This document shows positions 4,720-10,442 of a DNA stretch of 64,000 nucleotides, in pieces (the stretch's first letter is position 1; each line of letters starts with the position of its first letter). The notes under the pieces are model-generated. The model was not told the DNA's origin. It did not search any database and saw only the letters and a program-made list of their open reading frames with translations. This stretch comes from an uncultured Bacteroidota bacterium (GTDB lineage: Bacteria; Bacteroidota; Bacteroidia; Bacteroidales; SZUA-534), in assembly GCA_946404125.1 (NCBI GenBank), contig CAMJCK010000009.1, forward strand, positions 14,006 to 78,005, in the 5' to 3' direction. The translations under genes were made by a program, and so were the position numbers.

Positions 4720-5877
4720 TCAAGAACGGTTGCTAACACAAAGCGTTTGGTTGCTTATTAGTTGAGCGAAGACATTGAGTGCTAAAAATTTATACCGCAA
4801 TGTGTCGTGCGGTAGCATTCCTGCTTTTTGAGATACACTGGCATCGATTGTTCGGTCATCGAATAATTGCAAGGTTGGTTCGACAAGCAATAACCGACCA
4901 TCGGCGCAAGCTTCAAAATATGCCCCCTGCGGCTTGAAATACTTATAGTGCGGACTATCGGGTTTTGGAAAGCCATCTTTGAGCAGAATGATAATCGGGA
5001 AACCTGCCTCGCGCAAGGCTTTGCTAATTTGCTTCTCGCCTTCTGATATACAGGCGCTAACCCAAACTGTTCCTCGCTCGGCATCGGCCAAACATTGCTC
5101 TTTCTGCTTATCAATCTGTTCTTGCGTCAGCGAGCGAGAGCATTGCAATGCGGCCTTTTGCGGATAATCGAGCAAAAACTGCTTGCCGAGTGTTGTGCAT
5201 CGAAAGCATGCAACGTCTATGTTTTGATTCAGCACAAACAACTGCGGGTTCGCTCGTTTGAGTATGGCGCGACGCGGATTATCGCGAACGTAGTTGATAA
5301 CATTGTTGAGTTGGCCTTCGTGAAAGCAAATGGTGTCGTCGTAACCATCGGTAAAAAGCGGCGCCATTTCGGGGTGGGTTGCATAATACGCCTGGCGTTT
5401 CTTTTGTGATATGTGTGAAAGGTGGTTCTTCTTCTTTTCCAATTCTATATCAGACATATATGTCTGATATTTTTGACGCCACTCTTTTGTGCAACTTATC
5501 TTGAATCCACGGATTATCTCTCCCATTGACACATCCAACTCCGCATCCACACGCAGTATACCGTGAAAATGGTCGGGCATAACCTGGTGACCAAGCAGAC
5601 TGACGCGGCGTTTGTGCAAGGCTTGAACGGCTGGTATCTGCAACCATTGCTGCTCAACATATTTTCCGAGTGCGGATAGTTCGACTCGCGGATTGCTGGT
5701 GTCGTTATTCAATTCACCAAGTATCGGCTTTCGATTGTAGGTGACAATTGTTATCATATAAACACCCACACCTTTGTAATTGTACCACTTGGTGTGCGGA
5801 CGATATACGCTGTTTGGCTTTTCCAAACCTTCCGCTTTTCGCTTTCTCTCCCAATATGCTTTCCAATCGGTCTTCAT
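4720..5877 (-). CDS. HUH (Y1, IS200/RAYT-like) nuclease domain fused to a DprA/SLOG-like Rossmann domain
   Basis: N-terminal half: YMITIVTYNRKPILG strand, HUH motif MPDHFHGIL, Tyr helix INYVRDNPRRA. C-terminal approx 160 aa: AALQCSRSLT...GTVWVSACISEGEKQISKALREAGFPIIILLKDGF...ADGRLLLVEP...RYKFLALNVF, which follows the DprA core pattern (remembered, not searched). ATG at 5877 is preferred over the TTG at 5886. It lies 25 nt downstream of the mcrC stop on the same strand. Confidence 0.6.
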   Translation of the reverse strand: MKTDWKAYWERKRKAEGLEKPNSVYRPHTKWYNYKGVGVYMITIVTYNRKPILGELNNDTSNPRVELSALGKYVEQQWLQIPAVQALHKRRVSLLGHQVMPDHFHGILRVDAELDVSMGEIIRGFKISCTKEWRQKYQTYMSDIELEKKKNHLSHISQKKRQAYYATHPEMAPLFTDGYDDTICFHEGQLNNVINYVRDNPRRAILKRANPQLFVLNQNIDVACFRCTTLGKQFLLDYPQKAALQCSRSLTQEQIDKQKEQCLADAERGTVWVSACISEGEKQISKALREAGFPIIILLKDGFPKPDSPHYKYFKPQGAYFEACADGRLLLVEPTLQLFDDRTIDASVSQKAGMLPHDTLRYKFLALNVFAQLISNQTLCVSNRS

Positions 5878-5902
5878 TATGGCCAAATATACACATTGGT
5901 TT

Positions 5903-7222
5903 TCAGGTATGCTTCAAATACTCCAACAATTTGCTCTCTACTCCTTTCATTGCCGCAACATAATCAGTATATGAACGACACTGGCACTGAACTTGCAAGC
6001 CAATCAGCCTCATTGTGCCTCCGTGGCCTGCAAGACCATATTTCCCCGTTTTAGACTCGGATTCAACAGGATACACAAAACCGCCGTTATCAGCCTTCAT
6101 ACAATGCATATAGGTTACGACCTGATACAAATCTTCGCGGCCTACTCCATTGTCTAAACGCTTGTATTTAGCATCGAGAATGAAGTTTTCTTTCCAAAAA
6201 TCGGGATATAGACGACGGCTGTTTTTGGCAATCTCAACATCATATTTGTCATTCTCAAACATTCTGATACCACCTGTATGTTTTTTATTTTCTGGATGTT
6301 TGAACCCGCAACTTTTCAAAATCTTATTCAAATACTCCTCCCAAAGCCAAGCGCCGTCGAACAGAATGCCGTAGATTTGGTCTTTCTGGCGGCCGTATTT
6401 GAGCTCCTCGTGACGAAGGATTTGCAGGCAGAGCCGCTGCAAGTCGGTGTAGGCCGAAAAGTACGGGTGCCGCACGGGCCGAAGGTTCTGGCTGACGATT
6501 TTGGCGCGCTCGCGGGCGTTGTAGGTTGGCGTGGCCATAACAATCTGGCTGACAGCCGTTTTGGTGTCGGCATCGTTGTTCAGAATTGCCTGCCCCTGCT
6601 CCTTGCTGCGAATGAACTCAATGGTGTGGCGGACAAGTTGCGTGAGTTCGTTGTCGTAGGTGTGCTCGCGAGTGGTGTAGGCCACCGTGCCGCGGAACGG
6701 AATGTTCTGACGGATATGGCGGCTCACATCAATGGGTCCGCGAATGTTGGCGTCGTTGTGCTCAAAGCGGCGGTACTTCTTGAAAACGCCCTGCGCAACC
6801 GCCTTCCGCAGAAAATGGGGAAACAGATAGAACAGAAAATCGAAAATCCGCTCGGCGCTTGTGTCGTGCTTCAAATCGAACAGATTGATTGCTAACACTT
6901 TATGCAACATATAGTGCAGAAAATAGTCGTTGCCGTCGGTTTGGGCGAAACGCGAGCGAATGTCGATTTGCGTCTGGTTCACGCCCACAAAGCCCATTAT
7001 GTTGCCTGTGCTGATTTTGCCGTCGGAAAACGACAGAATCTGGTCATCGCCGATTTCGTCGCCGTGCTGTTTCAAATCGGGCGGAAAGACAAGCAGGTTC
7101 TTCTGTCTCGACAGCAAATCACTGATTTTCTTGTCAGAAATCAGTTCAATGTCGGATTTAGCGGCTAACTCACTGTCTGTCAGCGTGCGAGTTGAGTTAT
7201 CAGTTGTCGGTATCCGAATCAT
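5903..7222 (-). CDS. mcrC: McrC / LlaJI-R2-like restriction endonuclease subunit
   Basis: 439 aa. GNIMGFVG...IDIRSRF N-terminal signature and a PD-(D/E)xK core YPDF...ILDAKYK. Its start overlaps the mcrB stop by 23 nt. Confidence 0.8.
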   Translation of the reverse strand: MIRIPTTDNSTRTLTDSELAAKSDIELISDKKISDLLSRQKNLLVFPPDLKQHGDEIGDDQILSFSDGKISTGNIMGFVGVNQTQIDIRSRFAQTDGNDYFLHYMLHKVLAINLFDLKHDTSAERIFDFLFYLFPHFLRKAVAQGVFKKYRRFEHNDANIRGPIDVSRHIRQNIPFRGTVAYTTREHTYDNELTQLVRHTIEFIRSKEQGQAILNNDADTKTAVSQIVMATPTYNARERAKIVSQNLRPVRHPYFSAYTDLQRLCLQILRHEELKYGRQKDQIYGILFDGAWLWEEYLNKILKSCGFKHPENKKHTGGIRMFENDKYDVEIAKNSRRLYPDFWKENFILDAKYKRLDNGVGREDLYQVVTYMHCMKADNGGFVYPVESESKTGKYGLAGHGGTMRLIGLQVQCQCRSYTDYVAAMKGVESKLLEYLKHT

Positions 7223-10031: not shown

Positions 10032-10062
10032 AAAAAAGCAAACGGGCTCAACGCCCGTCTGC
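10032..10062 (-). terminator. Rho-independent terminator after the HIRAN gene
   Basis: The minus strand reads GCAGACGGGC-GTTGA-GCCCGTTTGC followed by TTTTTT, 27 nt after the HIRAN stop. Confidence 0.65.
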
Positions 10063-10088
10063 AAGTTCGGCACTCAACTTTTTCGGCC

Positions 10089-10442
10089 TTATTTGGCTTC
10101 GGGGTTGCGCGCGACGGTGATTGAGAGATACACCTGATTTTCGGGGTGCGTGTCGGGCACAAGCTGGCTGATTCGGCAAGTGAACAAACTGTTCCAACCT
10201 GCTTCAAGCAAATGGGCCAAAGGCGTGTTTTCGGCACGCGGAATGTAGCCAAGCATATACGGCTCTTCATCGCCTGGTTTGTTGTACAGCACTGACACTG
10301 CGTTCGGGTCGTGGCGATTGTCGGGGTCGAGTTCCAACTGCAACTCGGTTCCAACCTTCAGTTCGTTCCAAACCAAGTCGGCATCGTAATACCTACGTCC
10401 TGCCAAGTGGCAATCCATAAAAAACTGTCTTCTTGCTCTCAT
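10089..10442 (-). CDS. Standalone HIRAN domain protein
   Basis: CHLAGRRYYDADLVW...LQLELDPDNRHDPNAVSVLY...LGYIPRAENTPLAHLLEAG matches the HIRAN pattern (VAG..YY, EPDNPYDPNAI, LGY.PR). ATG at 10442; the ORF track begins at a TTG at 10448. Confidence 0.75.
   Translation of the reverse strand: MRARRQFFMDCHLAGRRYYDADLVWNELKVGTELQLELDPDNRHDPNAVSVLYNKPGDEEPYMLGYIPRAENTPLAHLLEAGWNSLFTCRISQLVPDTHPENQVYLSITVARNPEAK

Follow-up and report, generated by a model that had tools for sequence, protein, structure and literature searches.

Introduction

RAYTs, a widespread group of domesticated transposases, still lack a clear cellular role. DprA-type domains bind single-stranded DNA (ssDNA), and some of them also bind RecA. 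It has also been known that type I restriction-modification operons may contain embedded genes, such as prrC, which lies between hsdS and hsdR. In Escherichia coli, other cassettes are known to take the place of the REPtron loci of RAYTs (TnpA_REP; PMC6006769). ShosA, a DprA-like protein that forms part of a defence system, binds ssDNA and RecA (PMC12961424), and the DprA protein of Helicobacter pylori modulates the restriction of incoming DNA (PMC3597690). Operons that combine a YafY (WYL) regulator with an EVE protein have been described, HIRAN not being reported in them (PMC7641849), and a census of McrBC systems makes no mention of HUH or DprA. Here we analyze a gene predicted to encode a RAYT-like Y1 HUH nuclease domain fused to a DprA-like domain (the Y1::DprA-like gene), which follows a HIRAN gene, mcrB, and mcrC in a 64,000-nt stretch of contig CAMJCK010000009.1 from an uncultured Bacteroidota bacterium (Bacteroidales; SZUA-534). 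This whole stretch is referred to as the window.

The locus is best read as modular, with an EVE-McrBC operon, a HIRAN gene at the head, and the RAYT-like Y1::DprA-like gene at the tail, and not as a dedicated four-protein machine. With a probability of roughly 0.45, we suggest that the tail gene encodes a hairpin-specific enzyme for the cleavage and joining of ssDNA which, together with its hairpins, anchors or promotes exchange of the restriction cassette located 5' of the gene. McrBC itself is known, and the Y1::DprA-like family appears to be undescribed with regard to its in-frame and flanking hairpins, the DprA-like domain it contains, and its directional linkage to diverse restriction systems. 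As far as our searches show, a systematic position of Y1 genes 3' of restriction systems is also unreported. One RAYT lineage would have gained a DprA-like domain of the ssDNA/RecA type, at a reproducible and directional position after differing restriction systems. If the enzyme moves or exchanges cassettes, defence genes of gut and rumen Bacteroidales would turn over by a new route; should it act together with the cassettes, it would be a new generic restriction accessory. Either outcome would provide a concrete function for a RAYT-type protein.

Domain Structure and Distribution of the Y1::DprA-like Family

Protein families were assigned by scanning the encoded proteins against Pfam, NCBIfam, and PADLOC. 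Sequence matches of the Y1::DprA-like protein are weak: Pfam Y1_Tnp was detected with an E-value of 4.5e-4, which does not reach the Pfam cutoff, and residues 215–385 matched no Pfam or NCBIfam family, including Pfam DNA_processg_A, so that the similarity to DprA is at the level of fold only. Using Foldseek, the AlphaFold model of the protein (pLDDT 81.7) was compared with structures in the PDB. Residues from about 38 to 215 matched the TnpA proteins of IS608 and ISDra2 as well as E. coli RAYT (4er8) with E-values of about 4e-5, and residues from about 218 to 375 matched ShosA (8zva) and DprA (3uqz and 4ljr) with E-values of 1.5e-3 to 5e-3, all with a probability of 1.0. Both halves therefore agree with the HUH/DprA-like fusion that had been proposed from the DNA sequence alone (hereafter the original prediction); its calls of HIRAN, McrB, and McrC for the other three genes were likewise borne out by Pfam. 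The Y1 HUH core and the single Tyr motif which are typical of RAYTs are both present in the window protein. The DprA-like domain contains the conserved motifs ISEGEKQI and KPQGVYFEACA.

The closest described relatives are the RAYT/TnpA_REP proteins of REPtrons (E. coli RayT, 4er8), specifically class 2 of TnpA_Y1 and especially its subclass 2.4 (PMC6006769). Members of the new family share with them the Y1 HUH fold, a Tyr motif of the class-2 type (Y-[VI]-x-D-N-P), a low number of copies, which are divergent paralogues, and clade-specific hairpins in tandem arrays by the gene. However, the family differs in its length of about 385 residues and in its DprA-like C-terminus, neither of which is found in any of the 12 published subclasses (PMC6006769), and its HuH motif is D-H-[FLI]-H instead of the N-H-x-H of subclass 2.4. 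The window copy also differs in having no flanking arrays. Its match to NCBIfam REP_Tyr_transpos (NF047646; E-value = 2.5e-10) scored 40.4 bits, below the curated cutoff of 80 for this family.

TnpA proteins of IS200/IS605 elements are the top structural matches of the N-terminal domain, and hairpin-guided single-strand chemistry would be expected. Unlike these elements, the new family shows no identical multi-copy elements, no subterminal hairpins at block ends, and no tnpB; its Tyr motif is of the class-2 type and not Y-x-x-x-Q, and its Y1_Tnp score lies below the gathering threshold. No subterminal hairpin of the IS200/IS605 type at defined left and right ends was detected at the ends of a 4.2-kb mobile block (described below) or in the flanks of the window gene. 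The C-terminal half is predicted to share the Rossmann-type fold of DprA/Smf and of ShosA in ShosTA (8zva; PMC12961424), from which it differs by the lack of a Pfam DprA match and by its fusion to a nuclease domain instead of a SAM or winged-helix domain. No ShosT-like phosphoribosyltransferase partner was found next to the window gene, the neighbors of which encode McrC and a response regulator, and there was no PADLOC match to ShosTA. A PADLOC scan of the four proteins called no system and gave only generic AAA (McrB) and partial HIRAN matches, the Y1::DprA-like protein being unmatched. As far as we searched the literature on HUH proteins or RAYTs in connection with DprA, defence, or restriction, neither this fusion nor this association has been described.

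We then analyzed the distribution of the family. In a clustered protein collection, 1181 relatives of the protein were detected. The DprA-like domain alone, used as a query, identified 555 clusters at 50% identity, and in nearly all of them it is C-terminal in proteins of 330–450 residues. A scan of 185,579 species genomes revealed 136 relatives, the best 80 of which were used for locus comparison; these 80 are all located in uncultured rumen or gut Bacteroidales (Paludibacteraceae and "Bacteroidaceae"). No relatives were found in 2.9 M viral contigs and 72,556 plasmids, and an exact-protein look-up of the window protein returned no record. Nine genomes have two or three copies, which are 47–73% identical within a genome (26% in one pair). 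An active or multi-copy insertion sequence, which the original prediction had kept in view, could be ruled out because copies of the same genome are this divergent, keeping in mind that identical repeats might be hidden by the assembly of metagenome-assembled genomes (MAGs).

A candidate Rosetta-stone fusion of 1082 residues (P0192) was also rejected: it is a read-through open reading frame (ORF) and not a fusion to a restriction enzyme. In this ORF, a phosphatidylserine-decarboxylase-like enzyme is joined to Y1::DprA via a translated hairpin array, visible as repeated IAHxCAI peptides.

Restriction Systems Upstream of the Y1::DprA-like Gene

The genomic context of the family was surveyed in 81 loci, 75 of which were used in a test of direction. 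Restriction-type genes are rare at positions −5 to −3 (0–2%), increase to 16% at −2 and 27% at −1, and drop to 4% at +1 and +2 and to 0% at +3 to +5. Altogether, a restriction gene is located upstream in 24 of 75 loci and downstream in 6 of 75 (Fisher P-value = 4e-4). The gene is associated with restriction-type systems at large and not specifically with McrBC, and this association is strongly directional. The two downstream genes are mostly housekeeping genes (PPDK, tRNA synthetases, PfkB).

The most frequent neighbors belong to the MmeI family of type IIG/L enzymes, intact or as remnants, within two genes upstream in 13 loci; in L012, such a gene is downstream. McrBC was found beside the gene in 5 of 81 loci, which form two clades (the window, L001, and L002; L051 and L056). 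Other upstream systems include GmrSD (L037), Wadjet JetC/JetD (L057), ZacABC (L006), and an SF1 helicase-nuclease (L029). In two loci (L053 and L079), the Y1::DprA-like gene is embedded in a type I operon between hsdM/S and hsdR, with gaps of 0 and −4 nt in L053. This resembles the hitch-hiking defence genes known from type I operons, such as prrC; unlike these, the gene contains no anticodon-nuclease or Abi-type domain and also follows systems other than type I. Short gaps are found elsewhere as well, including 17 nt after JetD and 9 nt after HsdS.

One explanation for this arrangement is that the protein is a generic accessory of restriction, which is coexpressed with the upstream system and acts on ssDNA that is beyond, or generated by, restriction of double-stranded DNA. 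Its substrates might be incoming conjugative or transforming ssDNA, rolling-circle intermediates, or resected ends, and it could serve as a second line of defence or in restriction alleviation or repair via RecA loading. The short gaps (25 nt after McrC in the window, together with those of JetD, HsdS, and the L053 operon), the lack of a terminator before the gene, the restriction peak at −1 and −2 only, and the invariant catalytic residues are all consistent with such a role, for which ShosA (PMC12961424) and H. pylori DprA (PMC3597690) offer precedents. On the other hand, the partners (type I, IIG/L, IV, Wadjet, and Zac) have unrelated mechanisms and differ between sister genes; specific protein contacts are therefore unlikely. 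In addition, two thirds of the loci have housekeeping or unassigned upstream genes (e.g., ABC ATPase, polyprenyl synthase, SusD, and PFOR), the hairpin arrays and the in-frame hairpin presented in the next section suggest a self-contained REP-type system, and there is no PADLOC model. An accessory role, which we consider rather unlikely, is the main alternative to cassette exchange, and some link of the gene to restriction remains plausible.

Evidence for exchange comes from the comparison of close relatives. When placed on a neighbor-joining tree of the Y1 proteins, the cargo types are dispersed, MmeI being present in at least six clades, and genes that are sisters in the tree are accompanied by type I, Wadjet, or an MmeI remnant. 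MmeI pseudogene remnants persist beside the gene. Loci L044 and L068 are 98.6% identical over the Y1 gene only. In differing flanks, a 4.2-kb block (c14-c17-Y1) retains 96.7% identity, and the homology stops with the first base of the stop codon of Y1; in L035, a hairpin begins at +1 after the end of the block. Sharp homology boundaries were also observed between L062 and L074 and between L022 and L024, and a bPH_3-Y1-GmrSD-MmeI block, at the head of which an identical protein (P0089) is encoded, has two different left flanks.

The 4.2-kb block itself (L033, positions 3850–8089; L035, positions 4708–8952; also in L045 and L072) consists of the Y1 gene and four genes (103, 194, 230, and 378 residues) without Pfam or PADLOC match, and its middle part is divergent (66%) in L072. 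The block may represent a cargo system that has so far escaped recognition.

These boundaries may also be viewed differently. The gene might be a passive neighbor, that is, a domesticated RAYT which maintains its own hairpin repeats, a host function with no relation to defence, with restriction cassettes gathering only because insertions are tolerated or attracted by hairpin arrays and variable regions. The RAYT-like features, the high diversity of neighbors, and the fact that close relatives differ exactly at the gene borders fit this explanation, as does the known replacement of E. coli REPtron loci by other cassettes (PMC6006769). However, cargo that is co-oriented and present on the 5' side only would be hard to explain by a passive hotspot, and neither the location of the gene inside type I operons with overlapping codons nor the restriction of the cargo almost wholly to DNA-targeting restriction systems, and not other island genes, is accounted for. 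This explanation thus seems improbable to us.

Hairpins Inside and Beside the Gene

The Y1::DprA-like gene of the window contains a perfect 24-nt palindrome, ATATCAGACATATATGTCTGATAT, which is the sole stem of at least 10 bp with a 4-nt loop in the 64 kb and is a variant of the hairpin of its clade, TCAGCCAnnnnTGGCTGA. An internal perfect hairpin (stem of at least 7 bp) was detected in 76 of 79 family genes, about 350–600 nt into the ORF, in the variable linker that separates the HUH and Tyr motifs. Hairpins are also present within 400 nt of 60 of the 79 genes, often as the same sequence in tandem arrays. The number of array copies is seven in L014 (at 45-nt spacing), three in L011, six in L061, and five in L080, and flanking arrays were also observed in L010, L016, L025, L031, and L049. 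The density of hairpins is 1.72/kb inside the gene and 2.42/kb in the 400-nt flanks versus 0.62/kb elsewhere.

Each Y1 clade has its own hairpin. For the type A hairpin (TCAGCCA-N4-TGGCTGA), 26 of 28 hits in 1.07 Mb are located inside a Y1 gene or no more than 300 nt away from one. Relatives of the window have a homologous hairpin at the same position of the gene, which gave 11 distinct orthologous hairpins. In this set, 6 of 10 pairs changed on both sides, and no one-sided changes were observed in the 8-bp core. Covariation reached 0.335 compared with 0.128 in shuffles, a value that none of 500 shuffles attained, with the paired percentage being inflated since the hairpins had been chosen by a perfect-stem finder. 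Scanning metagenomes for the window palindrome yielded 28 hits, only two of which (L116 and L124) come from relatives, in both cases inside the Y1 gene.

A second hairpin, TACCGCAcgacacatTGCGGTA, with a 7-bp stem, is found at window positions 4793–4814 in the 3' part of the gene and encodes the near-invariant peptide LPHDTLRY. It is also present in L001, L002, L018, and L034, and may be structural or a by-product of coding.

Possible Mechanism of Cassette Exchange

A reasonable hypothesis is that the tail gene represents a domesticated RAYT/TnpA_REP-type Y1 HUH enzyme fused to a DprA-like domain. The gene would mark the conserved 3' border of a site occupied by a single compact system of the restriction type (MmeI-like, type I, McrBC, GmrSD, Wadjet, or ZacABC), and this cargo would repeatedly be exchanged or decay. 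Like E. coli RAYT acting on REPs, the Y1 enzyme may cut ssDNA at its hairpins and rejoin it. It is possible that either this activity, or the conserved gene and its hairpin arrays serving as an anchor for recombination, drives the exchange or mobility of neighboring cassettes. The window copy, which has no flanking arrays, would be read through from the mcrBC promoter.

A more far-reaching proposal, which we regard as unlikely, is that the protein is the recombinase of an unrecognized platform for the capture and exchange of restriction cassettes by means of ssDNA hairpins. By analogy, the enzyme would cut and rejoin at clade-specific hairpins, loosely like integron attC sites or the one-ended ISCR/IS91 elements. 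In this model, ssDNA would be bound by the DprA-like domain, with possible recruitment of RecA, and one compact restriction system at a time would be installed or swapped directly 5' of the gene.

Several observations weigh against hairpin-dependent cassette exchange. With regard to the hairpins, and besides the way in which those of the covariation analysis were selected, genome-wide dispersal of REPs is a defining property of RAYTs, and few dispersed copies were detected here: about 12 hairpin hits are more than 1 kb from a Y1 gene in the 1.07 Mb of loci, and no further copies of the window hairpin are present in the 64-kb window. The window, L001, and L002 have the internal hairpin and no flanking arrays, the window gene is packed 25 nt after mcrC, and that of L001 overlaps the next gene; in these three loci, it looks like a member of an operon rather than a REPtron. 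The ssDNA folding of the ends of the 4.2-kb block and of the flanks of the window gene was no better than that of shuffles (z from −1.2 to +1.3), and no target-site signature was found at the mobile block. With regard to the cargo, two thirds of the loci have no recognizable restriction gene upstream, the restriction reference set of the directional test was drawn from the same loci, and embedding in type I operons with overlapping codons is no less compatible with a functional partner than with a recombination anchor. Finally, all data come from MAGs, in which contig breaks near the gene might reflect strain variation and not mobility.

The McrBC Core and Its Exchanged Reader End

The McrB protein of the window has a motor recognized by Pfam AAA_5 (E-value = 1e-15) and by NCBIfam McrB (E-value = 2e-38, a partial match over the motor). 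Its translation contains the Walker A sequence GAPGTGKT as well as IIGTMNDIDRS, which carries the NxxD signature of McrB proteins. A McrB-type AAA+ GTPase, an adjacent and overlapping mcrC (PF10117), and an N-terminal EVE reader could all be recognized, and mcrB-mcrC can thus be assigned, from its sequence, to the ordinary EVE-McrBC operons, that is, a hypervariable type IV restriction system that is modification-dependent. It resembles E. coli McrBC and the EVE-McrB class (PMC7641849) in its AAA_5 McrB with an N-terminal reader, the position of the EVE-like domain before the motor, the overlapping PF10117 gene, and the strain-variable reader end. It differs in an extra N-terminal module of 360 residues, and in the HIRAN and Y1 add-on genes, which belong to no described McrBC system. 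As had been surmised, no catalogued system with the composition HIRAN/McrB/McrC/Y1 could be found in PADLOC or in the census of McrBC systems.

The N-terminal module (residues 1–360) is rare, with 11 homologues among 5.8 billion proteins. Its structure was modelled with confidence (pLDDT 89.7, pTM 0.88), and Foldseek revealed no significant fold match in the PDB (best E-value 0.3). Weak matches include winged-helix (MarR-like) and HhH-glycosylase-like proteins. Judging from the model, this module may be a new reader or regulatory domain of McrB.

The gene order NudC/HIRAN/McrB/McrC/Y1 is common to at least five related genomes or strains, namely the window, the species-level relatives L001 and L002, and the metagenome strains L116 and L124. 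Within this order, homology between the window and L001/L002 breaks precisely over positions 8410–9977. The window McrB has 923 residues and an EVE domain, whereas those of L001 (651 residues) and L002 (533 residues) have no Pfam EVE match. L116 and L124 carry another McrB allele, which is only 50% identical to that of the window even in the motor, compared with 88% identity of McrC and 95% of HIRAN and Y1. The AT-rich stretch of mcrB, which had been noticed in the original prediction (GC content of 0.35–0.39 at positions 7750–9250 versus 0.45–0.55 in the surroundings), therefore appears to be a swapped specificity module; that is, the segment is AT-rich because the DNA-reader end of McrB has been exchanged between strains. 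Such swapping of specificity modules, as deduced from these alignments, matches what would be expected for type IV enzymes.

The HIRAN Gene and Its Contexts

The standalone HIRAN family is of modest size, with 57 clusters of proteins of about 115–120 residues. The window protein aligns only with the C-terminal HIRAN part of PADLOC PDC-M03B (positions 126–229 of about 250 residues); besides this partial match, no match to PDC-M03A was detected among the four window proteins, so the locus could not be assigned to PDC-M03. Five independent contexts were located through HIRAN homologues. A WYL(-WCX) regulator is present 5' of HIRAN in all five, directly adjacent in four and one gene off in L088. 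The genes on the 3' side encode GmrSD in two contexts, HNH in one, and an acetyltransferase in one; in the remaining context, a 461-residue protein and an integrase are found downstream. In L085/L091 and L081, an EVE-like protein is encoded by the first or second gene after HIRAN. These small proteins are similar to residues 404–498 of the window McrB in pairwise BLAST and received no EVE call from Pfam. Neither McrBC nor a Y1::DprA gene was found in any of the five contexts. From gene order and signals, the HIRAN gene would be a separately transcribed head module, which in other loci is usually preceded by a WYL regulator gene and often followed by a gene for an EVE-like protein.

This organization is similar to that of the YafY (HTH-WYL)-EVE operons and WYL regulators of defence islands (PMC7641849) in that HIRAN homologues occur in the order WYL-HIRAN-(EVE-like)-effector and that WYL regulators are located near Y1 in L037, L051, and L057. 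It differs in that HIRAN is no described member of these operons (PMC7641849) and in that the window has no WYL gene: a tblastn search of the window for a WYL gene or its remnant found none, and the locus is thus not a WYL(YafY)-EVE operon.

At the edge of the WYL-HIRAN-EVE-like-GmrSD island of L085 (14674–15135) and L091 (12931–13392), an ordinary Y1_Tnp gene encoding 153 residues is located in reverse orientation beside recA.

HIRAN and Y1 bracket three different cargos in the same order, namely McrBC in the lineage of the window, ZacABC in L006, and GmrSD in L037. For two rare families, this co-occurrence exceeds chance; it would also be expected from two modules that are each associated with islands.

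The original prediction had raised the possibility of a three- or four-component McrBC system that couples recognition of modified DNA to processing of ssDNA; in a dedicated system of this kind, HIRAN and the HUH/DprA-like protein would be obligate partners. In support of this, HIRAN, McrB, McrC, and Y1 are kept together in the window, L001, L002, L116, and L124 despite the swap of the McrB reader, there is a second McrBC-Y1 clade (L051 and L056), the bracketing of GmrSD and ZacABC follows the same order, and HIRAN often precedes EVE-like proteins, a domain that the window McrB contains. However, McrBC accompanies only 5 of the 81 Y1 genes and none of the five independent HIRAN contexts, the HIRAN gene has its own terminator and mcrB its own promoter-like box, and L001 and L002 keep HIRAN though their McrB has no detectable EVE domain. 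When neighborhoods were tabulated, homologues of both genes were largely scattered with respect to mcrBC, an outcome that had been named in advance as speaking against the proposal, and HIRAN mostly occurred as WYL-HIRAN-X without McrBC. A dedicated McrBC system is thus very improbable; it and the passive-neighbor explanation are both less likely than cassette exchange and an accessory role. Gene adjacency in a single genome can mimic a dedicated multi-component system which the wider context of the families fails to support.

In L051 (1285–9230), WYL-WCX is followed, after a 605-nt gap, by a distant Y1 paralogue (371 residues, 26% identical), McrB (820 residues), McrC, and Y1::DprA (431 residues), such that McrBC is bracketed by two members of the Y1 family.

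Organization and Flanks of the Window Locus

The coordinates of the features are listed in table 1. The ORF list agreed with the four minus-strand genes, their positions, and their spacing as originally predicted (23-nt overlap of mcrB and mcrC, 25-nt gap between mcrC and the Y1 gene). The terminator after HIRAN and the TAGATTTG box before mcrB were also recovered in the sequence; this box fits the Bacteroides −7 consensus TAnnTTTG and would function as a promoter element. A search of the interval between mcrC and the Y1 gene found no terminator-like site, in line with the earlier reading, and co-transcription of mcrB, mcrC, and Y1 is judged probable, as had been suggested.

Table 1. Positions of genes, domains, and signals of the McrBC locus in the window
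Feature	Positions	Strand	Basis or remark
HIRAN-domain gene, standalone, 117 aa	10089-10442	minus	ORF 10089-10448, ATG at 10442; Pfam PF08797, E 2e-15
Intrinsic terminator 3' of HIRAN gene	10032-10062	minus	10-bp GC-rich stem at 10062-10038 and T-run
TAGATTTG promoter-like box 5' of mcrB	9991-9998	minus	Sequence reading; predicted
mcrB, 923 aa	7200-9971	minus	N-terminal module, EVE-like reader, AAA+ GTPase
Strain-variable AT-rich segment at the reader end of McrB	8410-9977	minus	Non-homologous among window, L001, and L002; blastn breakpoints
McrB residues 1-360, rare N-terminal module	8892-9971	minus	Confident model without structural match
Putative EVE-like modified-base reader domain, McrB residues 361-498	8478-8891	minus	Pfam EVE, E 3.6e-5 at residues 361-442
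mcrC, 439 aa	5903-7222	minus	Pfam PF10117, E 5e-56
Y1 HUH (RAYT-like)::DprA-like fusion gene, 385 aa	4720-5877	minus	ORF 4720-5886, ATG at 5877
Predicted Y1 HUH nuclease domain, residues about 38-215	5233-5766	minus	Fold match and invariant motifs
HUH motif H103/H105	5563-5571	minus	M100-P-D-H103-x-H105 invariant in 24 family members
Perfect 24-nt palindrome ATATCAGACATATATGTCTGATAT inside Y1 ORF	5447-5470		Encodes YQTYMSD, between HUH and Tyr motifs
Catalytic-type Tyr196	5290-5292	minus	Y196..N200-P-R-R (Y196-x3-NPRR) invariant in 24 family members
Predicted DprA-like Rossmann domain, residues about 218-375	4753-5226	minus	Foldseek; best-conserved part of family
Remnant of 3' end of HXXEE-family gene, 52 bp	4668-4719		Homology with L001/L002 stops here

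The core genes named originally as flanks are present: according to Pfam, a His_kinase gene and a LytTR regulator lie on the left, and a NudC-like NUDIX gene and an acyl-ACP thioesterase gene on the right. The left boundary turned out not to be fixed, since L001 and L002 have HXXEE, Atg22-MFS, and sulfatase genes at this side and the window and L116 have the LytTR pair instead. The HXXEE gene corresponds to positions 9142–9681 of L001, and the 52-bp remnant in the window marks the replacement of the flank. On the 5' side of the HIRAN gene, a 407-nt intergenic stretch separates it from the divergent NudC gene. No tRNA was detected at window positions 1–20000, and thus no island boundary of the tRNA type; an integrase is absent among the annotated flanking genes of the block.

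Tandem 8-nt repeats of TTCAATCC (complement GGATTGAA) were observed in intergenic regions of the window at 1690–1771, 11673–11717, 14650–14715, and 57815–57859. Similar short tandem repeats are located just 5' of the Y1 genes of some relatives, including ten copies of AAAGACTAAC in L003 and four copies of CTGAAAG in L044. An AT-rich and repeat-rich sequence at window positions 35455–35626 contains an 86-nt tandem duplication with 74% identity.

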